A DNA stretch of 48,677 nt from Minisyncoccota bacterium. GTDB lineage: Bacteria > Patescibacteriota > Minisyncoccia > Phycocordibacterales > UBA9973. A program made the translations under genes and the position numbers. Location: assembly GCA_031291825.1 (NCBI GenBank), contig JARLIG010000003.1:1-48677 (forward strand), given 5' to 3'. Each line of letters starts with the position of its first letter. Within the stretch, counting starts at the first letter, position 1. This document shows positions 4,649-27,195 of the stretch, piece after piece. The notes under the pieces were generated by a model that was given only the letters and a program-made list of their open reading frames with translations, did not search any database and was not told the DNA's origin.

Positions 4649-4654
4649 TTTTTT

Positions 4655-5599: not shown

Positions 5600-5604
5600 A
5601 AAAG

Positions 5605-5650
5605 ATACAGACGTTGGACGTCTGGGGAACCGAGACGTCCAACGTCTATA
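5605..5650. repeat. GACGT palindromic element copy (inverted pair)
   Basis: CAGACGTTGGACGTCTGG, then GGAACCG, then AGACGTCCAACGTCT. The arms are reverse complements and each arm is itself a hairpin. Starts 6 nt after the mltG stop. Confidence 0.8.
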
Positions 5651-5660
5651 TCAAAATTAT

Positions 5661-6188
5661 ATGAAAAAACACAATTTTGCTTTTATTGATATAGAAACTA
5701 CAGGCTTAAACTTATTAAAGAATGAGATTATTGAAATTGGCTGTGTTCTCACAACACCTGACTTAAAAGTAATCGAAGAATTTGAATTGAAAATAAAACC
5801 AGAACATATAGAAACAGCTAACCAAATTGCTCTCAAGGTAAATCATTACAATAGAGAAGATTGGGAATCAGCTCTTAGTTTAGAAAAAGCTATTAAAATA
5901 TTTTCTAAAAAAGTTAGAGACTGTATTATGGTTGGACACAATGTATCTTTTGACTCTGGGTTTTTAGAATATACTTTTAATCAATTTAAAATAAAAAATC
6001 CGATGCATTATCACAAGTTAGATACTATTTCTATTGCTTGGGCAAAATTTCACAACGATCCAAGCTTCGAGCATTTCTCTTTACATGAAATGTGTTTGCA
6101 TTTTGGTATAAAAAACGAGCGTGCACATTCTGCTTTGCCTGATGCTCGTGCCACATATGAGCTTTACAAAAAACTCATGTCTCTGTAG
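5661..6188 (+). CDS. DEDDh 3'-5' exonuclease (DnaQ / Pol III epsilon-like)
   Basis: Exo motifs FIDIETTGL, VGHNVSFDSGFL, HSALPDA. Confidence 0.8.
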   Translation: MKKHNFAFIDIETTGLNLLKNEIIEIGCVLTTPDLKVIEEFELKIKPEHIETANQIALKVNHYNREDWESALSLEKAIKIFSKKVRDCIMVGHNVSFDSGFLEYTFNQFKIKNPMHYHKLDTISIAWAKFHNDPSFEHFSLHEMCLHFGIKNERAHSALPDARATYELYKKLMSL

Positions 6189-6293
6189 AATCAAAATATT
6201 CTCTAAAAAGCCCGCATAATTTTCTGCTGAAAATTTGCTTAGACTTCGGCCCGTCGGCCTACGTAAGACTTTTTATAGAACATTTTGATTCTA
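6186..6293. mobile_element. MITE-like element with 25-nt terminal inverted repeats filling the whole intergenic spacer
   Basis: Left TIR is TAGAATCAAAATATTCTCTAAAAAG (6186-6210). Reverse complement of 6269-6293 is TAGAATCAAAATGTTCTATAAAAAG (2 mismatches in 25). The left end is the TAG stop of the upstream gene and the right end is the A of the mnmA ATG. The GC-rich interior contains AATTTTCTGCTGAAAATT. Confidence 0.6.
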
Positions 6294-7453
6294 TGAGTAA
6301 CACAAAGAAGAAAATTGTATTCGTTGGACTTTCGGGAGGTGTAGACTCTGCGGTTTCTGCTGCGCTTCTGAAAAAACAAAATTATGAAGTTGTCGGAGTT
6401 TTTATCAAAACTTGGCATCCGGAGTTTTTAGTGTGCAACGAAGAAGAAGAACGTATGGACGCGATGCGCGTGGCAGCTCATTTAGATATCCCTTTTTTAA
6501 CTTTTGATTTTAGCGACGTTTACAAAAAAGAAGTTGCAGACTATATGATAAATGAGTATAAAACTGGAAGAACTCCAAATCCAGATGTGATGTGCAATAA
6601 AGAAGTGAAGTTTGGAGCATTTCTCAAAAAAGCACTTTCAATGGGTGCTGACTTTGTGGCGACTGGACATTATGCACAAGAGTTTTCAGAGCAGAATTTT
6701 AAAGGCGGAAGGTTCCGCCCGAAGGGTGGAGTAATGCCGAAAAATTCTGCTCTGAAAACGTTTTTAGTTAAAGGAATAGACCCCTCAAAAGATCAAAGTT
6801 ATTTTTTGTGGACATTAAAACAAGAACAATTAAGCAAAATTTTATTTCCAATTGGATATTTAAAAAAGACCGAAGTAAGAATTTTGGCGAAGAAATTTAA
6901 ATTACCAGTTGCGGAAAAGAAAGACAGTCAAGGGATTTGCTTTTTAGGCGCGGTAGATTTAAAAGAATTTTTGAAGCATTATATTAAATCAAAAAAAGGG
7001 AAAGTTGTTAATGAAAAAGGGGAGGATGTTGGCTATCATGATGGAGTAGTTTTCCACACATTAGGGGAGAGACATGGATTTACAATTACTAAAAAAGGTT
7101 CAACGGATGGCGCGTATTATGTCATTGGTAAGGATATTAAAAAAAATATTTTAGTTGTTTCGCAATCCCCAGACGTTGGACTGACGTTGGACACCCGCCA
7201 AGGGCGGATGTCCAACGTCGACCCAGACGTCCAACGTCTGGAACAAACTAATTGGATTTTAAAAATTCCAAAACCAAATAAAAATTATACAGCGCAAATC
7301 CGTTACCATGGAGAATTTTTTCCTTGTCAGATATTAATCAAATCAAAAACGGAGGTAGAAGTTTTATTCAAAAAACCAGTCATTATTGCCTCTGGTCAAT
7401 CCATTGTTGTTTATGACAAAGATGTTTGCCTGGGCGGCGGAGTGGTTGTATAA
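6293..7453 (+). CDS. mnmA: tRNA 2-thiouridine(34) synthase MnmA, carrying two in-frame palindromic insertions
   Basis: PP-loop SGGVDSAV, ATGHYA, KDQSYFL, DSQGICFLG, C-terminal barrel ending CLGGG. Confidence 0.9.
   Translation: MSNTKKKIVFVGLSGGVDSAVSAALLKKQNYEVVGVFIKTWHPEFLVCNEEEERMDAMRVAAHLDIPFLTFDFSDVYKKEVADYMINEYKTGRTPNPDVMCNKEVKFGAFLKKALSMGADFVATGHYAQEFSEQNFKGGRFRPKGGVMPKNSALKTFLVKGIDPSKDQSYFLWTLKQEQLSKILFPIGYLKKTEVRILAKKFKLPVAEKKDSQGICFLGAVDLKEFLKHYIKSKKGKVVNEKGEDVGYHDGVVFHTLGERHGFTITKKGSTDGAYYVIGKDIKKNILVVSQSPDVGLTLDTRQGRMSNVDPDVQRLEQTNWILKIPKPNKNYTAQIRYHGEFFPCQILIKSKTEVEVLFKKPVIIASGQSIVVYDKDVCLGGGVVV
6683..6758. repeat. Intragenic palindromic element (18-nt perfect inverted repeat, 40-nt GC-rich core)
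   Basis: TTTTCAGAGCAGAATTTT (6683-6700) is the exact reverse complement of AAAATTCTGCTCTGAAAA (6741-6758). The core contains the hairpin GGCGGAAGGTTCCGCC. Translated in frame as FSEQNFKGGRFRPKGGVMPKNSALKT. Confidence 0.8.
7169..7241. repeat. Intragenic copy of the GACGT palindromic element (long imperfect inverted repeat)
   Basis: CCAGACGTTGGACTGACGTTGGACACCCGCC, then AAG, then GGCGGATGTCCAACGTCGACCCAGACGTCCAACGTCTGG. Translated in frame as PDVGLTLDTRQGRMSNVDPDVQRLE. Confidence 0.8.
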
Positions 7454-7460
7454 TGGATAA

Positions 7461-7919
7461 ATGCAACAATTTTTTACACAAAACTATGATGTTATATTAA
7501 GATTAGTAACAGCAGTTTTTCTTGGTTTACTGGTTGGGGCAGAGAGAGTTTTAGTGCATAAAGAGGCTGGAATGAAAACGCATGCTTTAGTAGCAATGGG
7601 TGCGGCAGTTTTTGCTTTAGTGTCTGAACAATTAATACAAAAATATGCATATCTACCAGGGCTTAATCCAACTATGATTCCAGCTCAAATAGTACTAGGT
7701 ATTGGATTTTTAGGTGCTGGGTCAATAATGTTACAAGGCTCACGGCTCAAAGGTTTGACTACCGCGAGTGGACTTTGGGTTGTTGCCGGTATTGGTATGG
7801 CTTCTGGGTTAGGGTTTTATGGTTTGGCTTTTATTGCAACCGTTTTAATACTTTTGATTTTTACCTTGGTATATATACTTGAAAAACCTATTAGAAAAAT
7901 TTCTGGGGAGACAGAATAA
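7461..7919 (+). CDS. MgtC/SapB family membrane protein
   Basis: VGAERVLVHKEAGMKTHALVAMGAA signature and 4-5 TM helices. Confidence 0.8.
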   Translation: MQQFFTQNYDVILRLVTAVFLGLLVGAERVLVHKEAGMKTHALVAMGAAVFALVSEQLIQKYAYLPGLNPTMIPAQIVLGIGFLGAGSIMLQGSRLKGLTTASGLWVVAGIGMASGLGFYGLAFIATVLILLIFTLVYILEKPIRKISGETE

Positions 7920-7935
7920 ATAATTTAGAATCAAT

Positions 7936-9681
7936 ATGCAGTCAGATGAAATCAGGTCAAGATTTTTAAAATTTTTTGAGAAGCGAGGACATAAAATAAT
8001 TCCTTCGTCTTCGTTGGTACCTGACAATGATCCTTCGGTGCTTTTCACGACGGCTGGAATGCATCCGCTCATACCGTATTTATTAGGAGAAGCCCATCCG
8101 ATGGGTATTCGTTTAGCAGATGTGCAGAAATGTGTTCGCACGCAAGACATCGACGAAGTCGGTGACAAAACTCATGACACTTTTTTTGAAATGATGGGTA
8201 ACTGGTCGCTCGGAGATTATTTTAAAAAAGACGCGATTAAATGGAGTTATGAATTTTTAACTTCCAAAGAAGAAGGATTGGGTCTTGATGCAGAAAGACT
8301 TTACTTTACATGTTTTGAAGGAGATGAAAATGCGCCAAAAGATACAGAGTCTGCAGAAGTTTGGGAATCTCTAGGCATATCAAAAGATAGAATTTATTTT
8401 TTAGGCGCTGGAGATAATTGGTGGAGTCCTGGAGACAATGGACCATGTGGACCAGATTCAGAGATGTTTTATGATTTAACAGGAGAACTCGGAGATTTAA
8501 CTAAAGAAGAATTTGAGAGTGGATGTGATGAACAAAAAATTGTTGAAATTTGGAACGATGTTTTCATGGAATACGAAAAGAAAGATGCAAAGATAATTGG
8601 TAAATTAAAAAAGCAAAATGTTGATACGGGTGCAGGCTTAGAAAGAATCTCTATGGTTATGCAAGAAACAGATAGTGTCTTCGAGACAGATTTATTTGTT
8701 CCGATAATGAATAAAATCAACGAGCTTACAGAATCTAGAGATGAAAGACCGAAAAGAATTGTTGCTGACCATATTCGTACAGCTGTTTTTATGATTAGTC
8801 ACGGAGTTATACCGTCAAATACTCATCGAGGTTATATTTTACGTAGATTACTTCGTCGCGCCGTTCGATATTCCGACATTTTGGATTTTAAGCATAACTC
8901 TCTTTTTTTTATAGCTGAAATAGTTATAGAAAAATACAAGAATATTTATCCTGAATTAAGTCAGCATTCCGAAGTTGTTAAAAAAGAAATAGATAAGGAA
9001 GAAAAAAGATTTAGAGAAACTCTAGCGAAAGGCATGAAAGAATTTGAAAGGGGGATAGACCCATTTGTTCTTTTTACAACCTATGGTTTTCCCATCGAAC
9101 TCACTATTGAATTGGCAAACGAAAAAGGAAAAAAAATAGATTTAGAAAATTTTAAAGAGAAAATGGCAGAACACCAAAAACTTTCCCAGACTTCTTCCGT
9201 GGGGATGTTTAAGGGTGGTTTGGCAAATCATAGCGAAAAAACAATTCGCTTACACACGGCGCATCATCTGCTTTTGGCTGGTCTTCAAGCGATTGTTGAT
9301 AAAAACATAAAACAGCGAGGCAGTAACATCACCGAGGAACGCTTGCGTATGGATTTTCTTTGCGACCACAAGCTGACAGATGAGGAAAAGCAAAAAGTTG
9401 AGGCTTGGGTGAATGATAAAATTAAACAAGGTCTTAATGTCATACGCAAGGAGATGCCTTTAATGGAAGCGGAAAAGATTGGCGCGGAAATGGAATTTGG
9501 TGCTAAATATCCAGCAGTCGTGTCTCTTTATTTTATAGAAGATAAGAATGGTAATCCTATTTCAAAGGAATTTTGCGGTGGTCCACACGTGAAAAACACC
9601 AGCGAGCTTGGTATTTTTAAAATTCAAAAAGAAGAAGCTGTAGCGCAAGGAATTAGACGTATAAAGGCCGTGCTTTTGTAA
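7936..9681 (+). CDS. alaS: Alanine--tRNA ligase, compact form (581 aa)
   Basis: FTTAGM, WSLGDYFK, GPCGPDSEMFYD, DTGAGLERI, then HTAHHLL and CGGPHV of the editing core. No C-Ala domain. Confidence 0.88.
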   Translation: MQSDEIRSRFLKFFEKRGHKIIPSSSLVPDNDPSVLFTTAGMHPLIPYLLGEAHPMGIRLADVQKCVRTQDIDEVGDKTHDTFFEMMGNWSLGDYFKKDAIKWSYEFLTSKEEGLGLDAERLYFTCFEGDENAPKDTESAEVWESLGISKDRIYFLGAGDNWWSPGDNGPCGPDSEMFYDLTGELGDLTKEEFESGCDEQKIVEIWNDVFMEYEKKDAKIIGKLKKQNVDTGAGLERISMVMQETDSVFETDLFVPIMNKINELTESRDERPKRIVADHIRTAVFMISHGVIPSNTHRGYILRRLLRRAVRYSDILDFKHNSLFFIAEIVIEKYKNIYPELSQHSEVVKKEIDKEEKRFRETLAKGMKEFERGIDPFVLFTTYGFPIELTIELANEKGKKIDLENFKEKMAEHQKLSQTSSVGMFKGGLANHSEKTIRLHTAHHLLLAGLQAIVDKNIKQRGSNITEERLRMDFLCDHKLTDEEKQKVEAWVNDKIKQGLNVIRKEMPLMEAEKIGAEMEFGAKYPAVVSLYFIEDKNGNPISKEFCGGPHVKNTSELGIFKIQKEEAVAQGIRRIKAVLL

Positions 9682-9715: not shown

Positions 9716-10909
9716 ATGGGAATTTTTTCAAAAAATAAAAATAAATTAATTTTAGTTTTTAATGTTGGTTCCTCAAATATTAGCGGAGCTCTTTTTTGGG
9801 CGCAAAATTCTGGTATTCCAAAAATAATTTTTTCCGACATTGAACCGATTCACATAGAAGACAAGCTTGATATTAATAAGTTTTTATCTTCAGCAATGCA
9901 ATCCTTAGATGCGGTGGCTGGTCGGATTCGCAAGGCTAATATGGGCACCCCACAAGAAGTTTTTTGTGTTTTATCTTCACCTTGGCATGTTTCTCAAACA
10001 CGCATAATTAATTTCAAGAAAAACACGCCCTTTATTTTTACAGCAAGGTTGGCTGAGAGTTTAGTGCAAAAAGAAATCAGTCTCTTTGAAGAAGAAAATT
10101 TAAAGAAAGACTCAAACGCGGATACTGCTAATCGCACGATTGAAGTTAAAAATATAAAAACCATTTTAAATGGCTACGAAACATCCGAGCCTTTAAATCA
10201 AAAAACTAAAGAATTAGAAATGACGGTTTTTATTTCTTTTGGTGAGGAAAAATTTCTAAAAACAATAGAAGATAATATTGCAAAATATTTTCACTTTAAC
10301 CAAATAAGATTCTCTTCTTTTTCCTTGGCATTTTTTACTATTGTAAGAGATATGTATATTCAAAAAGAAAATTTTCTTCTGCTTGATATTGGTGGGGAAG
10401 TTACAAGTATTTCTATGGTAAAAAAGAATATTCTCCGTGAAGGCATAACCTTTCCGATTGGGCGTAACTTTTTTACCCGTGGTGTTGCCAGAGATTTAGG
10501 ATGCACCTTGAGTGAAGCTGGGTCCCTAATTTCTCTTTTTAAAGATGGTCACGCAGAAGAATCTGTAGCAGCGAAGATGACTATAACTATGGGTCAGCTC
10601 AGAACCGAGTGGTTAAAAAGTTTTCAGGAATCTCTAGCAAATCTTTCCAATGACATCTCTATTCCTGCGACTATCTACCTATCCACTGATAAAGATTTAG
10701 CAGATTTTTTCTGTCAAACCATAAAGTCTGAACAGTTTAATCAATACACTTTAACTGAGTCAAAATTTGAAATTATTTTTTTAGACACCTCAGTATTTCA
10801 TGGAATTGCAGTCTTTGCTGAACCAGCAATTCGTGAACCAACACTTATCATCAATTCTGTTTATATTAATCGTTTTTTAATTTACCCCGCCACAATGGGG
10901 CGAGTATAA
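9716..10909 (+). CDS. Actin-fold ATPase-like protein (FtsA/PilM-like, divergent)
   Basis: LLLDIGGEVTSISMV resembles the phosphate-2 DxGG motif, and the N-terminal LVFNVGSSNISGA is phosphate-1-like. Otherwise divergent. Confidence 0.4.
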   Translation: MGIFSKNKNKLILVFNVGSSNISGALFWAQNSGIPKIIFSDIEPIHIEDKLDINKFLSSAMQSLDAVAGRIRKANMGTPQEVFCVLSSPWHVSQTRIINFKKNTPFIFTARLAESLVQKEISLFEEENLKKDSNADTANRTIEVKNIKTILNGYETSEPLNQKTKELEMTVFISFGEEKFLKTIEDNIAKYFHFNQIRFSSFSLAFFTIVRDMYIQKENFLLLDIGGEVTSISMVKKNILREGITFPIGRNFFTRGVARDLGCTLSEAGSLISLFKDGHAEESVAAKMTITMGQLRTEWLKSFQESLANLSNDISIPATIYLSTDKDLADFFCQTIKSEQFNQYTLTESKFEIIFLDTSVFHGIAVFAEPAIREPTLIINSVYINRFLIYPATMGRV

Positions 10910-10912
10910 ATT

Positions 10913-12283
10913 ATGCCAAAACATTTTTTAGAAGATATGGTTAAAAATAAGCGTGCTAAGGAAGATTTCAGGGAAGAACCTGAACCTAAAAGAGAAATAC
11001 AATACGTTGATACCATGGAAATAGAAACTAATTATAATCCGCAAAAATCACGTTACTTGCTTTGGTTCGTGGCGCTTGTTTCGGTTATTTTTTGCTTCTT
11101 TGCTGTTTCTTTTTTGTTCTCTAAAGCACAGATTGTTGTTAATCCAAAAACTGAAAGTGTTGTTTTAAACGAAAGTGTATTAGCCGACAAGGATTCAGAC
11201 GCCAATGGAATGTCTTTTGATTTAGTGGTTATTCCCGGACAAGAAAGTAAAACTATTCAAGTGAGTGGCGAAAAAAGTGTTTCCACTGCCGCTACTGGGT
11301 CAGTTTTAATTTTTAATGCTTATAGCGCTTCTCCGCAAAGGCTTGATATTGATACTAGACTGGTTGGTTCCAACGGAAAACTTTATAAAACGCAAGTAGC
11401 CACTATTGTTCCAGGAATGAACAAAAACGGCACTCCGGGACAAGTTTCTGTGGGTATTTATGCAGCCGAGCCTGGACCAGATTATAATAGTTCATCAACA
11501 ATCAGTTTTACAATTTTTGGTTTTAAAGGAACTCCAAAATATTCTAAATTTATGGCAGTGTCCGAAAAAGGAACTGTCATATCTGGCGGCTTCATTGGTC
11601 AAGCTCCGGATATTTCTCCGACCGACCAAAGCACGGCCTTGAGTGATATGAAAACTATCTTGCAAACAGATTTGGTCAATAAAGCTACTGCTCAGATTCC
11701 CGACGGGTTTATTCTTTTCAATAATGCTGTTGTTGTAAATACCGATGATGCAAACATGTCCTCAGTTTACAATCCAAACAATACGGCAACGATGACACTT
11801 ACTGGAACTTTATATGGCATTATTTTAAGTGAAGCAGAATTAACAAAAAAAATCGCGACAGATAATATTCAAAATTATGATGGTAGTGATGTTTACATAC
11901 CAGATATAAAAAATCTTACTTTCTCTTTATCTCCTGCCAGCGCAAGTGGGACGCAGACAGGTTCAACACCAGTAACTTCAACTACTGTAATTACTCCAAC
12001 AACCAATGCACCAGTAGTTTTGCCAAACACAACCGCCAATTCTTTAGTCGATGCGCAAAGTATAAATTTCAACTTATCTGGTACAGCCACAATCGTTTGG
12101 AAGCTTGATGAAAATAAATTTATTAATGATTTATTGGGTAAATCAAAAAAGGATTTTACGCAGATATTGTCTCAATATCCAAACATCAATTCTGCCACCT
12201 TAAATCTAAGCCCTTTTTGGAAGATGTCTATTCCAAATCAAGCTAAGGACGTAAAAGTAATTGTGAATTACCCGCAGTCTTGA
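10913..12283 (+). CDS. Hypothetical membrane-anchored protein with Ser/Thr-rich extracytoplasmic region
   Basis: Single TM helix YLLWFVALVSVIFCFFAVSFLF after a charged N-terminus. Thr/Ser/Pro-rich stretch near residue 340. Starts 3 nt after the upstream gene. Confidence 0.55.
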   Translation: MPKHFLEDMVKNKRAKEDFREEPEPKREIQYVDTMEIETNYNPQKSRYLLWFVALVSVIFCFFAVSFLFSKAQIVVNPKTESVVLNESVLADKDSDANGMSFDLVVIPGQESKTIQVSGEKSVSTAATGSVLIFNAYSASPQRLDIDTRLVGSNGKLYKTQVATIVPGMNKNGTPGQVSVGIYAAEPGPDYNSSSTISFTIFGFKGTPKYSKFMAVSEKGTVISGGFIGQAPDISPTDQSTALSDMKTILQTDLVNKATAQIPDGFILFNNAVVVNTDDANMSSVYNPNNTATMTLTGTLYGIILSEAELTKKIATDNIQNYDGSDVYIPDIKNLTFSLSPASASGTQTGSTPVTSTTVITPTTNAPVVLPNTTANSLVDAQSINFNLSGTATIVWKLDENKFINDLLGKSKKDFTQILSQYPNINSATLNLSPFWKMSIPNQAKDVKVIVNYPQS

Positions 12284-16522: not shown

Positions 16523-16555
16523 AAAACACCCCTTTAAGAAGGGGTGTTTTTATGT
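16523..16555 (+). terminator. Rho-independent terminator after rpsI
   Basis: AAAACACCCC-TTTAAGAA-GGGGTGTTTT followed by T. Confidence 0.7.
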
Positions 16556-16561
16556 TATATT
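16553..16561 (+). promoter_or_regulatory. Extended -10 TGtTATATT, 6 nt upstream of grpE ATG 16568
   Basis: TGTTATATT-gtctat-ATG. Confidence 0.5.
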
Positions 16562-16567
16562 GTCTAT

Positions 16568-17158
16568 ATGGCGGACGATGAAATTAAAAAAGAACCTGAA
16601 GTTACTGAGCCCGAAGAAGAGGTTGTTGAATTTGAATTCAACGAAGACGGCGAAGAAGATTTAAAGAAAACTCTCAAGAAATTCAGGGCTGATTTAAAGC
16701 AGTTAAAAGCTGAAAAGGAAGAATATTTAAATGGCTGGCAAAAAGAGAGAGCAGAATTTGCCAATTATCGCAAACAAGAAGACGAACGCAGAGCGGTCTT
16801 TTCGGAAGCAATGCGCGAGAGAATTTTGACTCGCTTTTTGTCGGTCATGGATAGTTTCAATATGGCTTTTTCAAATCGTGAGGCTTGGGAAAAAGTAGAT
16901 GAGAATTGGCGTAAAGGTGTGGAATATATTTATTCGCAATTAAATACAATTTTTGAAGAATACGGAGTAAAAGGAGTTGGCGAAGTGGGAGACACTTTTG
17001 ACCCAAATGTTTATGAATCGATTGATGTAGTAGAAACTGATAAAAAAGAAATGGACCACACAGTGGCCACGGTTATTCAGAAAGGATACAAACTAGGCGA
17101 ACGAGTGGTTCGCCCAGCTCGGGTAAATGTCTATGAATACAAAGGTGGAGCTCAATAA
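16568..17158 (+). CDS. grpE: Nucleotide exchange factor GrpE
   Basis: Coiled-coil N-terminal part and C-terminal FDPNVYESI...VIQKGYKLGERVVRPARV. The start is moved to ATG 16568 because the track's GTG 16544 lies inside the terminator stem. Confidence 0.88.
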   Translation: MADDEIKKEPEVTEPEEEVVEFEFNEDGEEDLKKTLKKFRADLKQLKAEKEEYLNGWQKERAEFANYRKQEDERRAVFSEAMRERILTRFLSVMDSFNMAFSNREAWEKVDENWRKGVEYIYSQLNTIFEEYGVKGVGEVGDTFDPNVYESIDVVETDKKEMDHTVATVIQKGYKLGERVVRPARVNVYEYKGGAQ

Positions 17159-19422: not shown

Positions 19423-19480
19423 TTGACCCCGTCGCTCACGAGCGACGGGGTTGACATACATATAGGCTATCATATATACT
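19423..19480 (+). promoter_or_regulatory. GC palindrome (candidate operator) abutting the dnaK promoter TTGACA-N18-TATACT
   Basis: TTGAC-CCCCGTCGCTCACGAGCGACGGGG-TTGACA. Palindrome at 19427-19450 with 10-11 bp arms; -35 at 19451-19456; -10 TATACT at 19475-19480. Sits between divergent genes. Confidence 0.55.
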
Positions 19481-19566
19481 CTAATTATACAAGTTTTTAG
19501 TGGTCGCGAAATATTAGTAAAATATAAAATTATCATTTAATTATAAGGTTAATTTAACAAAAATAT

Positions 19567-21477
19567 ATGTCAAAAATAATAGGTATAGATTTGGGTACAA
19601 CAAATTCGGCAGTCGCTATCATTGAAGGTGGCGTGCCAAAAATTATTGAGAACGTCGAAGGAAATCGCACGACTTCTTCTGTCGTGGCTGTCGCAAAAAA
19701 TGGCGACCGTATTGTCGGCTTACTAGCTCGCAGACAAGCGGTGACGAATTCAGAAAATACCATCTATGGTATTAAGCGTTTTATGGGCCACAATTTTGAC
19801 GACCCAGAAGTTCAGCAAGATTTAAAAAATTCTTCCTTCAAAATTCAGAAAGGTCCGACTGGCGGAGTGGAAATAAAACTTGGCGACAAGTGGATGCGTC
19901 CAGAAGAAATTTCTGCGATGATTTTGTCTAAAATTAAAACAGATGTGGAGACAAAGCTTGGAGAAAAGATTACCGAAGCTGTTATCACTGTGCCTGCATA
20001 CTTCAACGATGCGCAAAGAAAAGCAACCAAAGATGCTGGAGCTATCGCTGGGCTTGATGTAAAAAGAATCATCAACGAACCGACGGCGGCTGCACTTGCT
20101 TATGGTTTTAATAAAAAGAAAAATGAAAAAATAGTTGTTTACGATTTCGGTGGCGGAACTTTCGATGTTTCTATTTTGGAAATTGGCGATGATGTCGTCG
20201 AAGTGAAGTCTACAGATGGCGACAGCCACTTGGGTGGACGTGATATTGATTTCAAAATCATCAATTGGATTGCCGAAGAGTTTAAAAAGACTTCTGGCGT
20301 AGATGTTCGCAGTGACAAGCTGGCTCTGCAACGTCTCGACGAAGCCGCAGAAAAAGCTAAAATTGAACTTTCCACCGCTGTTGAAAGTGAAATCAATATT
20401 CCATTTATCACTTCTACCGCGCAAGGACCTCAACATCTTCTATTAAAAATGACTCGTGCTCAGCTTGAAGCAATTGCCGACGAATACATTACTCGTTCGA
20501 TTGATATCACCAAGCGCGCTCTGGCTGCTTCTGGTATTAAGATTGAAGACATCAATGAAATCGTGATGGTTGGCGGACAGACTAGAATGCCAAAGATTGT
20601 CGACGAAGTGAAGAAAGTTTTCGGCAAGAATCCAAACCTTTCAATCAATCCTGATGAAGTCGTTGCTCTCGGCGCAGCCGTGCAAGCAGGCGTATTACAA
20701 GGAGATGTGCGTGACGTGTTGCTGCTTGATGTGATTCCGCTTTCTCTCGGTATTGAGACTTTGGGCGGAGTGGCAACTAAATTAGTTGAACGTAATACCA
20801 CCATCCCATCTTCTAAGTCACAAGTATTCTCCACCGCTGCTGATAACCAGACTTCCGTAGAAATCCATATCGTGCAAGGTGAACGCCCAATGGCTTCCGA
20901 CAACAAATCTCTCGGACGATTTATTTTGGATGGAGTTCCACCAGCTCCTCGTGGTATGCCGCAGATTGAAGTTTCTTTTGATGTGGATGTGAACGGAATT
21001 TTAAATGTCACTGCAAAAGATAAAGCTTCGGGCAAGACGCAATCAATCAAGATTGAAGCTAGCTCTGGACTCAAAGATGAAGATATTAAAAAGATGCAAG
21101 CCGACGCGGAACTGCATGCGGAAGAAGATAAAAAGAAAAAAGAAGTTGTGGATATCAAGAACACCGCGGAGATGATAATTTACACTGCTGAAAAAGCAAT
21201 CAAAGACAACGAAGCAAAAATTGAGGCAACATTGAAAGACAGCGTGAATGCAAAAATTACTGCGCTCCGTGGCGTGAAAGACGGCACCGATGGCGAAGCT
21301 ATCAAAAAAGCAACCGAAGAACTTTCTAACGAAATGTCCAAAATCGGCGAAGCGTTAAATAAAGCCACCGCAGATGCGGGGCAAGCTGGAGCCGAAACTA
21401 AGACTACAGAGGAACAGGGTCCAGAAGTCAAAGATGCTGAATTCAAAGAAAAGGGTCCAGAAGGAGAAGCGAAATAA
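19567..21477 (+). CDS. dnaK: Molecular chaperone DnaK (Hsp70)
   Basis: [43 protein letters not shown]. Confidence 0.97.
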
Positions 21478-21500: not shown

Positions 21501-21785
21501 ATGATTGACACAACAAAAATAGATATTAATCAACTGCCAAAAAAATTCTGTGACGGTGCTTTTGGTGCCTTTGGAAAAGAATTTTTTACTTTCGCTATGA
21601 CATCAGGTAATAGTCTTGATTCCTTTGCGACCACACCTCAAGTTATGAAAAGCATAGCAATATGGATTAACGGACAAGTTCAAAACTACGAAAAACAGTT
21701 TGGTGAGATTGACATGACTCCACCGCAAATACAAAGTCCTATTCAAATGGCAGACTTAAAAAAATCTGGAGAAGATAATAAATAA
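21501..21785 (+). CDS. Small conserved hypothetical protein (possibly DUF3467-like)
   Basis: 94-aa ORF 23 nt after dnaK and followed by a terminator. The family guess comes from remembered pattern only. Confidence 0.5.
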   Translation: MIDTTKIDINQLPKKFCDGAFGAFGKEFFTFAMTSGNSLDSFATTPQVMKSIAIWINGQVQNYEKQFGEIDMTPPQIQSPIQMADLKKSGEDNK

Positions 21786-21792
21786 TTCAGCA

Positions 21793-21824
21793 AACCAAAA
21801 GCCCTTTAAGGGCTTTTGGTTTTA
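21793..21824 (+). terminator. Rho-independent terminator
   Basis: AACCAAAAGCCC-TTTAA-GGGCTTTTGGTT followed by TT. Confidence 0.7.
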
Positions 21825-21851
21825 GTTAAATTGTTGTAAAATATAACATAT

Positions 21852-23897
21852 ATGGAACTGCCAGAAATACCCATAAATAAAGACGTTACCTATTTAGGTC
21901 TGACGACTTTTCGCGACAAAAATCAACTCTTCGGCATCAAGCGCAAAGACAGGCGTCAGCATGTTTATATTCTCGGAAAGTCCGGTACCGGTAAATCCGT
22001 GCTGATGTTCAACATGATTATTCAGAACATTCAAAATGGCGAAGGAGTCTGCGTTGTAGACCCGCACGGAGAACTAGTGGAGGGTGTCTTGTCGGCGATT
22101 CCGCCAGATAGAATCAAAGATGTCGTTTACTTCAATCCTGCCGATGCAGACCATCATATTGGTTTTAACGTCTTGGAATTGATTGACCCGCAATATAAAC
22201 ATCTCGTAGCTTCAGGGCTGATGGGCATTTTCACGAAAATTTGGGCGAATGCTTGGAGCGCCCGAATGGAATATATTTTGAATAATTGTATTTTGGCATT
22301 GCTCGATACTCCGGGCACGACCTTGCTCGGTATTCCGCGAATGCTCGTAGACAAAGATTATCGACAGAAAATAATCGGAAATTTAAAAGACCCAGTCATC
22401 AAGGCTTTTTGGGTGCACGAATACGAAGCGTGGCAAGATAAATTCCGAAACGAAGCGATTGCGCCGATTCAAAACAAAGTCGGACAGTTTCTCTCGACTT
22501 CAATCATCCGTAACGTCGTCGGTCAGTCTACGAGTACCATCAATATTTTTGACATCATGAACGATGGCAAAATTTTCTTGGTGAACGTTTCTAAGGGACG
22601 CATCGGTGAAGACAACTCCGGGTTACTTGGAGGAATGATTATTACCAAGATTCAGTTGGCGGCGATGGAACGTGTGCGTATTCCCGAAGAACACCGCAAA
22701 GACTTTTACCTTTATGTAGACGAATTCCAAAACTTCGTAACCGATGCTTTTGCGGGTATTTTGTCCGAAGCTCGAAAATATCGACTCAATCTTACCGTCG
22801 CGCACCAGTACACCGCGCAGCTCGTGGTAGATAAAAGTTCGGCGGTGCGTGACGCAGTTTTCGGCAACGTCGGAACGATGATTGTTTTCCGTGTCGGTTC
22901 CGATGACGCAGACTTTTTGGAAAAAGAATTTGACCCAGAGTTCACGCCAGGAGATATCGTAAACCTGCCGAACTATAAAATTTATATCAAGCTAATGATT
23001 GACGGTGTGACTTCTCGTCCATTTTCTGCCAAAACTTTGCCTCCGATGGTGAAGTCGGGGAATAAAGAGATTGAAGATGAGGTTATTGAATCTTCGCGCA
23101 AATTATATTGTCGACCAAGAACTGTTGTGGAAAGAGAAATCAACGATTGGAGTGGAATGTCACTCGGAGATGAAGCTGGTTCTGGTACTGGAATTTTAGA
23201 AAAATTTCCAGCGATTTGTTCGCTTTGCGGGAAAAACACTACCGTGCCTTTCAAGCCAGAACCAGGAAGACCAGTTTACTGTAAAGATTGTGTTGCTAAA
23301 ATAAAATCTGGAGAAGTGAAAGTAGAAAAAAAGGGGCAAGACCAGATTCGTTTTGATGAAACGACTTTTTATAAACCCTTGGCTGATTTAGGAATAGAAT
23401 TTAAACAAAAAAACAATAAAGATGGAGTAGATGAAAATTATGTTGAGAGTACGGAGAGAAGTGTCCTTGCTGCAAAGAAGCCAGGAATAATAAGCTCTTT
23501 CAAAAAAGTATTTACCAAACCAAAGCCAGTAAATAATTATCAATCAAAACCGCCAGTTGTAAAAAACGCAGGCTTGAAAGAAGTTTTAAGTAAAGCTTTA
23601 TCAGAACCTATTACACCCAAGCCCACAACTCCGCCAGTAGTCACTCCAGCTCCAATTCCAGAACCAGTTTCACTCAATACTCTGAAAGATAAAATAAAAA
23701 CAGTTACACAGACTCCAATCACATCCAAAGACCGTGCGGCTAGTGCTGAGGATATGAATAAGTTGAAAGATTTGATTGCCGCGAAGTCAACAGGGCAAGC
23801 AACCTCAGAACTCACTTCAACTTCTCCCAAAGAAGAAGTTCCAAAAAGTAAAACTAAAGAAGTCCCTGAAGATGTATTGAAAAAAATCTTAGAATAA
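21852..23897 (+). CDS. TraD/VirD4 (T4CP)-like FtsK-HerA superfamily ATPase, no TM anchor, with C-terminal CxxC-x17-CxxC zinc ribbon and Pro/Thr-rich tail
   Basis: Walker A ILGKSGTGKS, Walker B FYLYVDEFQNF, LNLTVAHQY. Zinc ribbon CSLCGKNTTVPFKPEPGRPVYCKDC. No hydrophobic N-terminal helices. Confidence 0.7.
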   Translation: MELPEIPINKDVTYLGLTTFRDKNQLFGIKRKDRRQHVYILGKSGTGKSVLMFNMIIQNIQNGEGVCVVDPHGELVEGVLSAIPPDRIKDVVYFNPADADHHIGFNVLELIDPQYKHLVASGLMGIFTKIWANAWSARMEYILNNCILALLDTPGTTLLGIPRMLVDKDYRQKIIGNLKDPVIKAFWVHEYEAWQDKFRNEAIAPIQNKVGQFLSTSIIRNVVGQSTSTINIFDIMNDGKIFLVNVSKGRIGEDNSGLLGGMIITKIQLAAMERVRIPEEHRKDFYLYVDEFQNFVTDAFAGILSEARKYRLNLTVAHQYTAQLVVDKSSAVRDAVFGNVGTMIVFRVGSDDADFLEKEFDPEFTPGDIVNLPNYKIYIKLMIDGVTSRPFSAKTLPPMVKSGNKEIEDEVIESSRKLYCRPRTVVEREINDWSGMSLGDEAGSGTGILEKFPAICSLCGKNTTVPFKPEPGRPVYCKDCVAKIKSGEVKVEKKGQDQIRFDETTFYKPLADLGIEFKQKNNKDGVDENYVESTERSVLAAKKPGIISSFKKVFTKPKPVNNYQSKPPVVKNAGLKEVLSKALSEPITPKPTTPPVVTPAPIPEPVSLNTLKDKIKTVTQTPITSKDRAASAEDMNKLKDLIAAKSTGQATSELTSTSPKEEVPKSKTKEVPEDVLKKILE

Positions 23898-23904
23898 AAA
23901 ATAT

Positions 23905-25428
23905 ATGCCAAAGGCAAATCGAGTTCAAATAATCAAATATGGTCCGCCACCGCCAGAATTGCCTGTCTTCGGCAAGGTGAAACCCGAGGAGGTTTCTTTT
24001 ATTGGGCGGACTAATTATGTCGCTTCTTTAGAAGAAAAGAAATTCGTTTTCGGAATCAAAAGAATTGACCGACGCCGACATCTTTATATTATCGGAAAGT
24101 CTGGCGTTGGAAAGACTAAGCTACTGGAACTTTTCTTGCGACAAGATATCACTTATGGTCATGGTGTTTGTTTGATTGACCCGCACGGAGATGTCATCGA
24201 TGCAATGTTGGATTATATTCCAAAAGAAAGAATTGATGATGTTTGTATTATTGACCCAACTGATTTAGATTTTCCAGCGTCTTTCAATCCGCTGGCGAAT
24301 GTCGACCCACTTTTTAAATTTCAGTTGACGCAGGGCTTGATTGAAGTTTTTCAAAAACAATTCGGAGCAAATTGGACGCCTCGTTTGGAGCACGTTTTTC
24401 GTTTTACTTGTTTGGCCCTCTTGGATTATCCACATGCGACAATGCGTGGAATGATTTCGATGTTGACTGATAGAAATTATAGACAGAAAGTCGTGGAATA
24501 TATTACGGACGACATGGTGAAAAGATTCTTCGCGATTGAATTTGCCGATTGGTCGGAAAAATTTGATACAGATGCAATTATTCCACTCGTCAACAAACTC
24601 GGACAATTTCTTTCTGACCCGTTACTACGAAATATTTTTGGGCAGAAGCAAAATAAAATTGATATCAGTCAGTTGATGAATGAAGAAAAGATAATTTTAA
24701 TCAATCTTTCCAAAGGACGTCTGGGAGAAGAGAATTCATCTTTTTTGGGTTCGATGTTTTTGACAAAAATAAAACAAGCGGGGATGGAACGAGCTGCTAT
24801 TCCAGAAGCAGAACGTAAAGATTTTTATCTATATGTGGACGAGTTTCAAAATGTTGTGACGCAGACTTTTGAGAATATTTTATCGGAAGCTAGAAAATAT
24901 GGACTGAATCTAACGATGGCTCATCAATACGTCGGGCAAATTCTTCCGAAGGTACATCAGGCGGTGCTTGGTAATTGTGGAAGTATTATTTGCTTCCGTG
25001 TTGGCGGAGAGGATGCAGTAAAAATGAAGCCAGAGTTTGCTCCCTTGTTTGATGTGAAAGATATGATTAATCTGGCTGTCACAGAATTTTACATTAAAAT
25101 GACAATTGATGGAGAATCCTATGACCCATTTTCTGCAGAGACCTTAAAAGTTCTTCCACCCACTCATCCTTCTTATAAAGAAGAAATTATCGCAGCTTCT
25201 AGGGCAAAATATTCTATATCAAAAGACGATGCGCAGAAGTTGATTACCGAAGAAGAGTCTACAATTATTCGTAGTGCCGAAGAGAAGGCGATTATTGAAG
25301 GTAGGGCTAAAAGAAAAGAAAAAGAAAAAAATAAAGATAAAAATGTTGACGAGGAATCGGAAGAAAATGAAGTAAAGAATGAAACACCAAAAACAAAATC
25401 TTCACAAGAAGCTGAACCTATGATATAA
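23905..25428 (+). CDS. Paralogous TraD/VirD4-like ATPase (no TM anchor, Lys/Glu-rich tail)
   Basis: Collinear with the upstream ORF: FGIKRIDRRRHLYIIGKSGVGKT, FYLYVDEFQNV, LNLTMAHQY. Confidence 0.7.
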   Translation: MPKANRVQIIKYGPPPPELPVFGKVKPEEVSFIGRTNYVASLEEKKFVFGIKRIDRRRHLYIIGKSGVGKTKLLELFLRQDITYGHGVCLIDPHGDVIDAMLDYIPKERIDDVCIIDPTDLDFPASFNPLANVDPLFKFQLTQGLIEVFQKQFGANWTPRLEHVFRFTCLALLDYPHATMRGMISMLTDRNYRQKVVEYITDDMVKRFFAIEFADWSEKFDTDAIIPLVNKLGQFLSDPLLRNIFGQKQNKIDISQLMNEEKIILINLSKGRLGEENSSFLGSMFLTKIKQAGMERAAIPEAERKDFYLYVDEFQNVVTQTFENILSEARKYGLNLTMAHQYVGQILPKVHQAVLGNCGSIICFRVGGEDAVKMKPEFAPLFDVKDMINLAVTEFYIKMTIDGESYDPFSAETLKVLPPTHPSYKEEIIAASRAKYSISKDDAQKLITEEESTIIRSAEEKAIIEGRAKRKEKEKNKDKNVDEESEENEVKNETPKTKSSQEAEPMI

Positions 25429-25435
25429 ATAAAAC

Positions 25436-26533
25436 ATGTCTAAAGATTATTACGAAACCTTAGGAATAAATAAAGGTGCGTCAAAAGACGAAATAAAAAA
25501 AGCTTTTTATAAGTTGGCGCAAAAATATCATCCTGATAAAAAGGGTGGTAATGAAGCCAAATTTAAACAGGTAAATGAGGCTTATCAAGTTCTCTCAGAT
25601 GACGCTAAACGTTCAAAATACGACCAGTTTGGCTCGGGATTTGAGAATGCGGGTGCTGGTAACTATGGAGATGCGCAAGGCGGTTTTGGAGGTTTTAACG
25701 CTTCAGACTTTGGAGGTTTTCAGGGCGCAGGTGCTGACTTTGATTTTGGAAACTTAAATGATATCTTTAGTGATTTTTTTGGTGGCGGTATGGGTGGAGG
25801 AAGACCACAAGCACGCCGTGGACGAGATATCTCGACTGAAATTCAAATTTCTTTTTCTGAATCAATTTTTGGCGTCGCTAGAAAAATTTTAATTACTAAA
25901 ACTTCTACTTGTTTGACCTGCCATGGCTCTGGCGCGAAAGCTGGAACAAAGATGGAAACTTGTAAACATTGCAATGGGCAAGGACAGATTCACGAACAAA
26001 AGAGAACAATCTTTGGAAACATTGCCAGTACAAAAATTTGTGAGGTTTGTTTGGGTACTGGAGAAGTTCCCAGAGAAATTTGTGAACATTGCAAAGGCAA
26101 AGGAGTTCTCCGTCGTGAAGAAGAAATTTCAATTAATATCCCAGTCGGAATACGCGACGGGGAAATGATTCGAATGACAGGAATGGGTGAAGCAGTCTTT
26201 AAAGGTACCGCTGGAGACCTTTATATAAAAATAAATGTGATACCACATTCAGTCTTTAAACGTGACGGTAATGACTTGGTAATGAATCTAAATTTGAAAC
26301 TCTCGGACGCGCTCTTGGGAACAAAATATCCGATCCAAACCTTGGATGGAAACATCGAAGTGACGATTCCAGAGGGAGTTTCTATAAATGAAATTTTACG
26401 TGTTAAAGGCAAAGGTGTGCCAACAAAAAATAAAAGAGGAGACTTGCTAATCAAGCTTAACATTAAACTTCCGGAAAAATTATCGCATCAATCTCGAAAG
26501 CTTATTGAGGAGCTCAAAAAAGAAGGAATTTAA
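25436..26533 (+). CDS. dnaJ: Molecular chaperone DnaJ
   Basis: J domain with the HPD motif (KYHPDK). G/F-rich linker. Four Cys motifs: [32 protein letters not shown]. Confidence 0.95.
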
Positions 26534-26604: not shown

Positions 26605-27195
26605 ATGACATTTGAAATAATAATTTTTTTCTCAGTAATAATACAATTGATCGGAGTTTCTTTTTATATAAGAGATATGCTTCGTGGCACCACAAAGCCA
26701 AACCTGGTCACATGGTCTATTTGGGCATTGGCACCACTAATCGGTTCTTGGCTCGAGTGGAAAGCAGGAGCGAGACTTTCCATTTTCCCAGTTTTTATGG
26801 CGGGTTTCAATCCACTTTTAGTTATAGCCGTTGCTTTTGTAATAAAAAAGGGATATTGGAAAATCAAAAAATTTGACGTTTTTTGTGGAGCTCTCGCAAT
26901 ATTTGCATTGATACTTTGGTTGATAACAAAAAATATTTCCATATCAGTATTGTTTGCAATTTTAAGCGATGCTTTAGCGTCTTTGCCTACACTGGCAAAA
27001 TCTTGGACAAACCCAGAGACGGAAACATTCACAGCTTATCTCGGAGGAATAATTGCAAACATCCTAGGATTGGTTGTTATAAAAAATTGGATATTTCCAG
27101 TGTATTCTCTAGGAGTATATTTTATCCTAATGAATACTCTGATTATTGCTTTTATTTTCAGGAAAAAAGTGTTATATTTCAGGAATGAAAAATAA
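26605..27195 (+). CDS. Hypothetical polytopic membrane protein (about 6 TM helices)
   Basis: Hydrophobic throughout. The two halves show a loosely similar layout. No family recognised. Confidence 0.55.
   Translation: MTFEIIIFFSVIIQLIGVSFYIRDMLRGTTKPNLVTWSIWALAPLIGSWLEWKAGARLSIFPVFMAGFNPLLVIAVAFVIKKGYWKIKKFDVFCGALAIFALILWLITKNISISVLFAILSDALASLPTLAKSWTNPETETFTAYLGGIIANILGLVVIKNWIFPVYSLGVYFILMNTLIIAFIFRKKVLYFRNEK

Follow-up and report, generated by a model that had tools for sequence, protein, structure and literature searches.

The coupling proteins of type IV secretion systems (T4SSs), such as VirD4, TrwB and TraD, are built on a RecA-like nucleotide-binding domain that contains the Walker A and Walker B motifs and is interrupted by an all-alpha domain, as seen in the TrwB structures (PDB 1e9r, 1e9s and 1gki). 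In the Patescibacteria, or Candidate Phyla Radiation (CPR), a T4SS survey of 3,035 genomes reported VirB4 in 2,417 of them and 5,713 homologues of type IV coupling proteins (T4CPs) in 2,918, with 148 of these homologues lying near virB4 (Quinonero-Coronel et al. 2025, PMC12102498); its authors state that exaptation of the T4CP homologues cannot be ruled out. In this study, we describe two proteins of this kind, here named A1 and A2, which are encoded between dnaK and dnaJ in a stretch of 48,677 nucleotides from a Minisyncoccota bacterium (GenBank assembly GCA_031291825.1, contig JARLIG010000003.1; the whole stretch is hereafter called the window). A preceding interpretation of this DNA, made from the letters alone (hereafter, the sequence-only reading), had drawn attention to the pair and had suggested, from its embedding in a chaperone operon, a cytosolic translocating or remodelling pair. 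Comparison of related loci points elsewhere, namely to a membrane-anchored protein of the DUF8128 family as the usual partner of these ATPases.

As orphan T4CP homologues, the orthologues of A1 and A2 are already known. Their accessions (KKS50157.1, KKQ27394.1 and others) could be matched to Table S3 of the survey, in which they appear as T4CPs found with profile t4cp2 at 62-66% coverage and with 'VirB4 proximity: No', and in which they stand 3-5 genes apart, fitting the order A1-cys557-A2, where cys557 denotes a Cys-rich gene family described below. According to Tables S1 and S3, the same genomes carry VirB3/TrsD/VirB4/VirB6/VirB2 clusters and further matches to t4cp1, the VirD4-type profile, at 75-88% coverage, and the published tally mixes A1/A2-type proteins with other, t4cp1-type proteins (PMC12102498). 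The full text of the survey contains no occurrence of dnaK, and the main text and the searched parts of the supplement hold no DUF8128 partnership, no split or fused architectures and no level of conservation for these proteins. Our literature search found no paper naming DUF8128 and no link between dnaK and T4CPs in Nomurabacteria. The DUF8128 partnership, the relocation of the ATPase genes and their extreme conservation, all set out below, appear undescribed so far.

Results

A T4CP-type fold in both paralogues

A1 and A2 are 46% identical across 428 aa (E 1e-132), and the motifs quoted in the sequence-only reading were all located in both of them: GKSG(T/V)GK(S/T), the Walker A motif, reads GKSGTGKS at aa 42 of A1 and GKSGVGKT at aa 64 of A2, and is followed by FYLYVDEFQN (aa 285 and 307, respectively) and AHQY (aa 317 and 339). 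In alignments of 52-75 homologues, neither paralogue shows any variation at its Walker A and Walker B residues. The affiliation with TraD/VirD4/FtsK-HerA-type ATPases, also proposed from the letters, was borne out by profile searches, in which both proteins exceed the Pfam gathering scores of TrwB_AAD_bind, T4SS-DNA_transf, TraG-D_C and DUF87 (the last with 32.7 bits for A1 and 24.4 for A2, against a gathering score of 23.2). The best NCBIfam T4CP models reach 49-52 bits with A1 and A2, their cutoffs being 250-647, and neither protein matches FtsK_SpoIIIE (PF01580) at E<=0.01.

An AlphaFold model of full-length A1 built from a 52-sequence alignment had a predicted local distance difference test score (pLDDT) of 59 and was replaced by a model of aa 1-440 built from a more diverse alignment of 75 sequences (pLDDT 88.4, predicted TM-score 0.89). 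In this model, aa 113-237 form a helical block that separates the Walker A strand from the Walker B strand. Foldseek comparison with the PDB returned TrwB at the top (E 1e-13, TM-score 0.60-0.65 across 411-461 columns), and then HerA, Cag-beta, DotL, DndH-C and VirB4. Since the A1 module superposes best on TrwB and carries the all-alpha insertion, it is a T4CP-type ATPase, and A1 and A2 together represent an ancient paralogous pair with this fold.

Neither polypeptide has a transmembrane (TM) helix, the maximal Kyte-Doolittle value over 19-residue windows being 1.13 for A1 and 1.15 for A2, in agreement with the lack of an N-terminal anchor stated previously. The zinc ribbon that had been recognized in A1 from its CxxC-x17-CxxC pattern (aa 456-480) exceeds the cutoffs of both TIGR04272 and PF23477 (zf_Tbcl_2), and the CxxC-x17-CxxC domain binds zinc in small proteins of Methanosarcina (PMC12704099). 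The tails, too, have the composition described before, Pro/Thr-rich in A1, with Lys in addition, and Lys/Glu-rich in A2. Within the A1 tail, an 18-sequence alignment shows two conserved islands, KPLADLGIEF and DRAASxEDMNKLKDLI. The C-terminus of A1 orthologues, KEVPEDVLRKILE (positions 23859-23897 of the window), resembles a docking peptide, and so does the conserved F-x-E-P-x-I-COOH end of A2-like proteins across the family, which reads EAEPMI in the window (25408-25428).

DUF8128 as the usual partner of the ATPase

When 1.84 billion cluster representatives were searched with a profile, 8,441 (50% clusters) scored at E<1e-30, and 148 of the 150 best are 41-92% identical to A1. In many representatives the ATPase is preceded by an N-terminal extension of 280-490 aa, often beginning with a hydrophobic segment, and these extensions are homologous to DUF8128 proteins (E down to 1e-82). 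With a diverse profile as the query, A1-like proteins at 57-67% identity were retrieved from Doudnabacteria, Kerfeldbacteria, Kuenenbacteria and other lineages. On three of four such contigs (L084-L087) the ATPase starts 3-9 nt past a DUF8128 (PF26449) gene of 440-475 aa; the remaining one (L087) contains just a part of the DUF8128 gene, truncated at the contig end, and its gap to the ATPase is 71 nt. On none of the four do chaperone genes adjoin the ATPase. A scan of metagenomes with an A2-centred alignment provided 80 more loci, at 40-89% identity. Upstream sequence of 1.6 kb or more was available for 75 ATPase genes, and 46 of these proved to be linked to DUF8128, 32 of them lying directly downstream of it and 14 sharing one reading frame with it. 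By comparison, dnaK is nearby in 6 of 84 loci (the 80 metagenome loci and the 4 contigs of other CPR classes), all of them close relatives, and in this sample it is the upstream neighbour only where A2 is at least 84% identical.

The homology of the DUF8128 proteins was established by tblastn/BLASTP, PHROGs and hhalign. As far as gene fusion and adjacency can tell, this Rosetta-stone link shows that the usual partner of the ATPase is membrane-anchored DUF8128. The step from a chaperone neighbourhood to a cytosolic remodelling pair, taken in the sequence-only reading, does not hold outside the close relatives, where the ATPase goes with this anchored protein; nor is the ATPase elsewhere always found beside T4SS or competence genes, its neighbour being DUF8128.

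Tandem ATPases also follow DUF8128, in the order A1-A2 in one locus (L103) and A2-A1 in three others (L106, L107 and L113). Because such pairs occur outside the clade to which the window belongs, both paralogues must be older than this clade. In four loci (L119, L123, L129 and L145), two DUF8128-ATPase modules, about 41% and 55% identical to A1, are arranged in tandem, and one DUF8128-ATPase member (P0362, 1080 aa) bears a C-terminal S1 RNA-binding domain. The metagenome contig L098 contains, at 3295-8197, a complete dnaJ, a DUF8128 gene, a 238-aa open reading frame (ORF) and an A2-like ATPase gene (77% identical).

A further gene accompanies the module. Its product, here called sigHARE, has sigma-70 region 4 (Sigma70_r4) at the N-terminus and a HARE-HTH domain at the C-terminus, and its gene lies directly upstream of DUF8128 in several CPR classes (in L084-L086 and about 30 metagenome loci), where it usually opens a cassette of the form sigHARE-DUF8128-ATPase(-ATPase).

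Conservation of the dnaK-A1-A2-dnaJ order within one clade

For the Nomurabacteria-like clade, one genome per GTDB species was scanned, and the 80 loci returned were annotated by tblastn. More than 8,000 candidates were scored per paralogue; the top 120, all from Patescibacteria and mostly named Nomurabacteria or Paceibacterota, are 72-86% identical for A1 and 84-92% for A2. In about 90% of 60-67 species-level Nomurabacteria/Paceibacteria genomes, the order is dnaK-A1-(0-3 inserted genes)-A2-dnaJ, with dnaK upstream of A1 in 63 of the 67 loci having enough flank, A2 downstream of A1 in 59 of 63, and dnaJ directly after A2 in 54 of 59. The arrangement pointed out in the sequence-only reading is not unique to this genome and stands for the clade; it does not extend to the CPR at large.

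The distance from dnaK to A1 varies from 27 nt to 7 kb, with variable small genes inside, and about 26 of 69 loci have less than 170 nt here, whereas dnaJ starts 7-149 nt after the A2 stop in 45 of 46 genomes. In the window, 7 nt separate A1 from A2 and A2 from dnaJ alike. A1 and A2 are probably co-transcribed with dnaK and dnaJ in this clade. The dnaK locus is at the same time an insertion hot spot, receiving variable small ORFs and cys557-family copies, of which 0 to 3 are inserted between A1 and A2. The 94-aa ORF, which had been counted as part of the arrangement, has a homologue in 5 of about 160 related loci; judged by this distribution, it is a sporadic accessory gene outside the conserved order.

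The degree of conservation was compared in the 46 genomes that have all four genes, with medians taken relative to the window proteins. The median identity is 91.5% for the A1 domain and 92.0% for the A2 domain, as against 85.2% for DnaK and 79.2% for DnaJ. DnaK is surpassed in conservation by the A1 domain in all 46 genomes and by the A2 domain in 45 of them. The purifying selection acting on A1 and A2 is exceptional.

DUF8128 in the window and the relocation of the ATPase genes

The window encodes a DUF8128 homologue of its own, preceded by the gene for sigHARE. Its N-terminus is hydrophobic (aa 6-58, hydropathy up to 2.3), with one or two predicted TM helices, and is followed by a soluble domain of about 400 aa. 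The gene lies 17 kb upstream of the ATPases, neither fused nor adjacent to them, and a TM anchor for the module exists in the window only on this separate protein. Downstream of it come yceG, an RNase T-like gene, mnmA, mgtC, alaS and a ribosomal/rpoA cluster. The same gene backbone is present in Kerfeldbacteria (L085), where the ATPase is still found behind DUF8128, and relatives with an A2 71-79% identical (L094, L095, L102 and L136) retain the order sigHARE-DUF8128-(cys557)-A2. An ORF at 10913-12283, which synteny had made a candidate for the DUF8128 gene of the window, was rejected, having no similarity.

The linker regions can also be compared. The window DUF8128 ends in ...SPPTNLPT and the junctions of the fused proteins read KKGEPPxNLP, while A2 starts with ...GPPPPELP and A1 with MELPEIP. 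In the simplest history, as these gene orders and linkers suggest it, a fused or adjacent DUF8128-ATPase gene was split at the linker and, in this clade, the ATPase genes then moved about 17 kb, past the ribosomal cluster and in between dnaK and dnaJ, leaving sigHARE-DUF8128 behind. Given the fusion and adjacency seen elsewhere and the sigHARE-DUF8128 pair kept here, the "membrane-less" condition of A1 and A2 therefore reflects a split gene. As to the chaperone neighbourhood, the dnaK linkage is limited to close relatives, and it is therefore a lineage-specific rearrangement that gives no clue to function.

Phage relatives and the cys557 family

The layout of the module recurs in phages. The C-terminal half of phrog_5156 matches A1 (positions 386-805, E 2.5e-62) and A2 (E 8e-55), and its N-terminal half (positions 63-362) matches the window DUF8128. 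Its members include gp156 of Bacillus phage G (825 aa) and a 'VirD4 component-like protein' of SPO1-like Herelleviridae (about 906 aa). In hhalign comparisons with DUF8128, the N-terminus of gp156 reached a probability of 97% and the SP8 protein a weak 40%. For the phage ATPase, the identity is 22-29%, with 81-89% of the length aligned. These proteins resemble the CPR module in having DUF8128-like and ATPase halves, here in one polypeptide, and differ from A1 and A2 in being viral, fused and far more divergent and in having neither the zinc ribbon nor a paralogue pair. The corresponding loci are L168 4747-7467 in SP8 and L169 2196-6338 (gp155-gp156) in phage G, in which gp155, annotated 'VirB-like', precedes gp156. 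Our literature search found no published function for the SPO1 and phage G homologues.

Proteins of the cys557 family look cytoplasmic, are about 555-590 aa long and contain about 40 Cys, along with three zinc-ribbon-like CxxC...CxxC units. From 0 to 5 co-oriented paralogues per locus, about 30% identical, are wedged among grpE, dnaK, A1, A2 and dnaJ, and in 14 loci that have no dnaK, members of the family are likewise neighbours of the DUF8128/ATPase genes; the window has a single copy. The family has no match in Pfam, NCBIfam, PHROG or PDB, and the hhalign comparison of its members with the zinc-ribbon region of A1 was not significant (probability 18%).

Layout of the locus

The features of the locus are collected in Table 1. 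The coordinates confirm that the two paralogous ATPases, the 94-aa ORF and a terminator-like hairpin lie between dnaK and dnaJ, as had been reported. The 14-bp stem of this hairpin, on the 3' side of the 94-aa ORF, covers 21792-21822, and the U-tract UUUUAGUU comes next. In accordance with the earlier conclusion that the locus is no conjugative module, a scan of the window ORFs of at least about 150 aa, which passed over several shorter ones, revealed no relaxase, VirB4 or integrase. Housekeeping genes fill the rest of the window (bipA, yceG, mnmA, alaS, ribosomal proteins, rpoA, grpE, cysS, dnaB, tRNA synthetases, ftsW and murG), and positions 9716-12283 hold one FtsA/PilM-like ORF and one ORF without family assignment. 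The grpE ORF starts with GTG and overlaps cys557 by 32 nt, so that cys557 and the divergent paaX-like gene are what separates grpE from dnaK. Directly 3' of dnaJ, across the clade, there is a gene for a 196-aa membrane protein with hydropathy up to 2.3, for which family searches gave no match.

Table 1. Features of the dnaK-A1-A2-dnaJ locus and of the DUF8128 locus. Positions refer to the window, except in the last line.
Feature	Position	Strand	Evidence and remarks
sigHARE, Sigma-70 region 4 + HARE-HTH, 342 aa	2151-3179	+	Sigma70_r4 E 2e-11; HARE-HTH E 6e-10
DUF8128 homologue, 462 aa	3260-4648	+	tblastn with L084-L086 DUF8128 proteins, E 1e-31 to 3e-40
grpE	16544-17158	+	Pfam GrpE E 3e-36
cys557, Cys-rich, 557 aa	17127-18800	+	three zinc-ribbon-like CxxC...CxxC units; paralogue family accompanying ATPase/DUF8128 genes
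PaaX-like regulator, 179 aa	18869-19408	-	PaaX_M E 1e-19; divergent from dnaK
dnaK promoter-like site	19451-19480	+	TTGACA-18-TATACT; 11/12 positions match
Conserved dnaK leader block	~19485-19521	+	TTATACAAGTTTTTAGTGGTCGCGAAATATTAGTAAA; in about 40 loci
dnaK	19567-21477	+	HSP70 E 1e-239
94-aa ORF	21501-21785	+	accessory gene, sporadic by homologue count; DUF3467 E 6e-4, under gathering score
Intrinsic-terminator-like hairpin, 14-bp stem + U-tract	21792-21830	+	dG -20.5 kcal/mol; z -4.4
A1 ATPase, 681 aa, whole ORF	21852-23897	+	ORF listing, Pfam
A1 ATPase module, aa 1-440	21852-23171	+	Pfam, AlphaFold, Foldseek; Walker A 21975-21998, Walker B 22704-22733
A1 CxxC-x17-CxxC treble-clef zinc ribbon, aa 451-484	23202-23303	+	TIGR04272 E 1e-14; PF23477 E 8e-14
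A1 Lys/Pro/Thr-rich tail, mostly disordered	23304-23897	+	composition, low pLDDT; conserved C-terminus KEVPEDVLKKILE
A2 ATPase, 507 aa	23905-25428	+	A1-like module; N-terminal remnant ...GPPPPELP; acidic tail, end EAEPMI
dnaJ	25436-26533	+	Pfam J domain, Zn-finger domain, C-terminal domain
196-aa polytopic membrane protein	26605-27195	+	hydropathy, synteny
cys557-family copies in locus L001	150-5336, 10219-11943, 14688-16436		positions in L001

The region upstream of dnaK departs from the usual heat-shock arrangement. As in the canonical hrcA-grpE-dnaK-dnaJ operon, grpE, dnaK and dnaJ point in one direction and fit within 10 kb, and a strong promoter-like site together with a conserved leader element precedes dnaK. 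The differences from that operon are the interruption of grpE-dnaK by cys557 and paaX and of dnaK-dnaJ by the small ORF, A1 and A2, together with the lack of hrcA and of the CIRCE element, neither of which was found in the window (CIRCE with up to 3 mismatches allowed). In their place, a PaaX-like regulator with winged helix-turn-helix and PaaX_M domains is divergent from dnaK, as it is in nearly all related loci, and with the conserved dnaK leader it makes a candidate regulator/operator pair for a heat-shock control without HrcA in this clade. A perfect 12-bp GC-rich inverted repeat, ACCCCGTCGCTC-AC-GAGCGACGGGGT, abuts the dnaK -35 box at 19426-19451, and different GC-rich hairpins occupy the equivalent spot in other loci.

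Discussion

The two ATPases combine features of several known systems. With VirD4, TrwB and TraD they share the nucleotide-binding domain and its all-alpha insertion, and the C-terminal extension of A1 could recruit partners as that of TraD and DotL does. They differ from these T4CPs in being chromosomal, vertically inherited, extremely conserved and paired, in having no relaxase or T4SS genes nearby among the scanned ORFs, and in being partnered by DUF8128 rather than carrying a short two-helix TM domain; A1 is just 16-18% identical to TrwB and has no TM anchor in its polypeptide. HerA and FtsK-SpoIIIE belong to the same additional strand catalytic E (ASCE) P-loop superfamily, HerA structures being the second-best fold matches, with TM-scores below those to TrwB, and the succession of TM anchor, linker and motor in DUF8128 plus A1/A2 is similar to that of FtsK. 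Unlike HerA, A1 and A2 have no HAS-barrel and no NurA partner, and unlike FtsK they have neither an FtsK_SpoIIIE Pfam match nor the gamma (KOPS-binding) domain.

The domain identity, fold, paralogy and conservation of the two proteins, the fusion or adjacency to DUF8128 and the relocation of the genes are established by the comparisons above. All together, these data lead us to favour, as a probable reading that leaves real room for others, that A1 and A2 provide the soluble motor halves of a coupling-protein-derived pair of the CPR whose partner is DUF8128 and whose genes were relocated in this lineage. In such a system, A1 and A2 would assemble as one or more TrwB-like hexameric rings, possibly mixed, that would dock on DUF8128 at the cytoplasmic membrane, where ATP would drive the translocation or hand-over of a polymer substrate. 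By analogy with the C-terminal tails of TraD, VirD4 and DotL, the zinc ribbon and the basic, disordered tail of A1 may serve as a recruiting arm. As regards the substrate, we lean towards nucleic acid, in view of the DNA-binding neighbour, the zinc ribbon and the S1 fusion in one relative; the cys557 paralogue arrays, as candidate cargo or adaptors, hint at protein as the alternative.

Several observations sit less comfortably with this reading. The partnership with DUF8128 is extrapolated to this genome from fusions found elsewhere, across a separation of 17 kb, the number and topology of the DUF8128 TM helices are taken from hydropathy alone, and DUF8128 has no NCBIfam or PDB-sequence matches. 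The adjacency of sigHARE to DUF8128 may be plain conserved synteny. The embedding between dnaK and dnaJ persists in at least 50 species, the genes being very closely spaced, and the second, different dnaJ adjacency in L098 (dnaJ-DUF8128-x-A2) makes some functional tie to DnaJ possible. In addition, a t4cp homologue was reported to be non-essential in S. epibionticum, which is hard to reconcile with the extreme conservation, although which paralogue was meant is unclear (PMC12102498).

These points have to be weighed together with other explanations. The T4CP-type fold and Pfam families would equally suit true coupling proteins of a Patescibacterial T4SS of the mating pair formation (MPF)-FATA-like type, encoded far from virB4 and recruiting effectors or DNA. 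T4CP genes are often remote from virB4, and the same Nomurabacteria genomes hold VirB clusters (PMC12102498); moreover, L086 has a VirB4-like gene 7 kb upstream, and the 'VirB-like' gp155 is located 5' of gp156 in phage G. We nevertheless regard this explanation as unlikely, since the orthologues are recorded as not proximal to VirB4, in line with the small number of T4CP homologues near virB4 in the tally cited above, the t4cp1 matches of the same genomes are the better candidates for the role by their coverage, and T4CP homologues reach more genomes than VirB4 (PMC12102498). Furthermore, no relaxase was found among the scanned ORFs, the NCBIfam T4CP equivalog scores are far under their cutoffs, and the conserved partner DUF8128 is not a known T4SS component. 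Membership of the HerA/FtsK/T4CP superfamily is also what would be expected of a membrane-anchored DNA translocase independent of any T4SS, either FtsK-like, serving chromosome segregation at division, or driving the uptake or export of DNA in naturally competent CPR cells. Its case is made by a design that parallels FtsK, with a TM anchor, an extended cytoplasmic region and a ring motor at the C-terminus, by the neighbouring sigHARE with its two DNA-binding helix-turn-helix domains, by the zinc ribbon and basic tail of A1 and the S1 domain of one relative, and by the homologues in large Bacillus phages and a conservation so high that it suits a core cell-cycle role. With no FtsK_SpoIIIE match and no gamma domain, with an annotated ftsK already present in TM7x (bioRxiv 10.1101/2022.03.25.485537), and with both a comEC deletion that is not lethal and the dispensable t4cp homologue of S. 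epibionticum, it seems to us rather improbable.

The free cytosolic machine of the sequence-only reading, in which A1 and A2 would work with DnaK and DnaJ as a disaggregase, an unfoldase or a feeder of unfolded proteins to a translocon, draws on the clade-wide gene order, on the short gaps and conserved dnaK promoter and leader, which imply co-transcription, on the independent dnaJ-DUF8128-x-A2 arrangement of L098, and on the lack of TM segments in A1 and A2. T4CPs are also known to handle unfolded protein substrates. We consider it very unlikely, given that dnaK was nearby in so few of the 84 loci, close relatives all, that four other CPR lineages have no chaperone genes beside the ATPase, and that many relatives have the ATPase fused to a TM-anchored domain, which speaks against a free cytosolic machine; within the window itself, a strong terminator-like hairpin stands between dnaK and A1. 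The locus being an insertion hot spot, adjacency there is in any case weak evidence for this view. Finally, an ATPase of an anti-phage defence system or mobile element (HerA-type, like mad8 of MADS) that had landed in the dnaK locus might be suspected from PADLOC matches to mad8 (E 6e-14 and 9e-13) and HerA, which are weak and concern the ATPase alone, and from the existence of phage homologues. The neighbours, however, are core housekeeping genes and no partner defence genes accompany the pair, which occupies the same site in essentially all clade genomes, is vertically inherited with about 92% conservation, and has a composition like the rest of the window; in the relatives, no Sir2, nuclease or methylase partners, no flanking integrases or repeats and no patchy distribution were seen. 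For want of partner genes and because of the core-genome context, we rejected the defence-system explanation, to which we give next to no credence.

Returning to the DUF8128-partnered pair, a more ambitious version can be formulated, in which DUF8128 and A1/A2 would constitute an unrecognised, T4SS-independent membrane translocation machine, widespread in the CPR, that was borrowed by large Bacillus phages, used the cys557 arrays as cargo or adaptors, and became wired into the DnaK/DnaJ regulon in the Nomurabacteria clade so that chaperones prepare its substrates. Taken as a whole, this version is speculative and, in our judgement, improbable.

The present locus also calls for caution, as the gene order of one genome can mislead on function: dnaK-X-X-dnaJ is a clade-specific rearrangement. 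The DUF8128 partner, the occurrence in phages and the multi-copy Cys-rich family provide handles for experiments in cultivable, transformable CPR. The CPR/Patescibacteria account for much of bacterial diversity, and most of them are regarded as living attached to other microbes; an ATPase pair that spans several CPR classes may bear on the exchange of material between them and their hosts.

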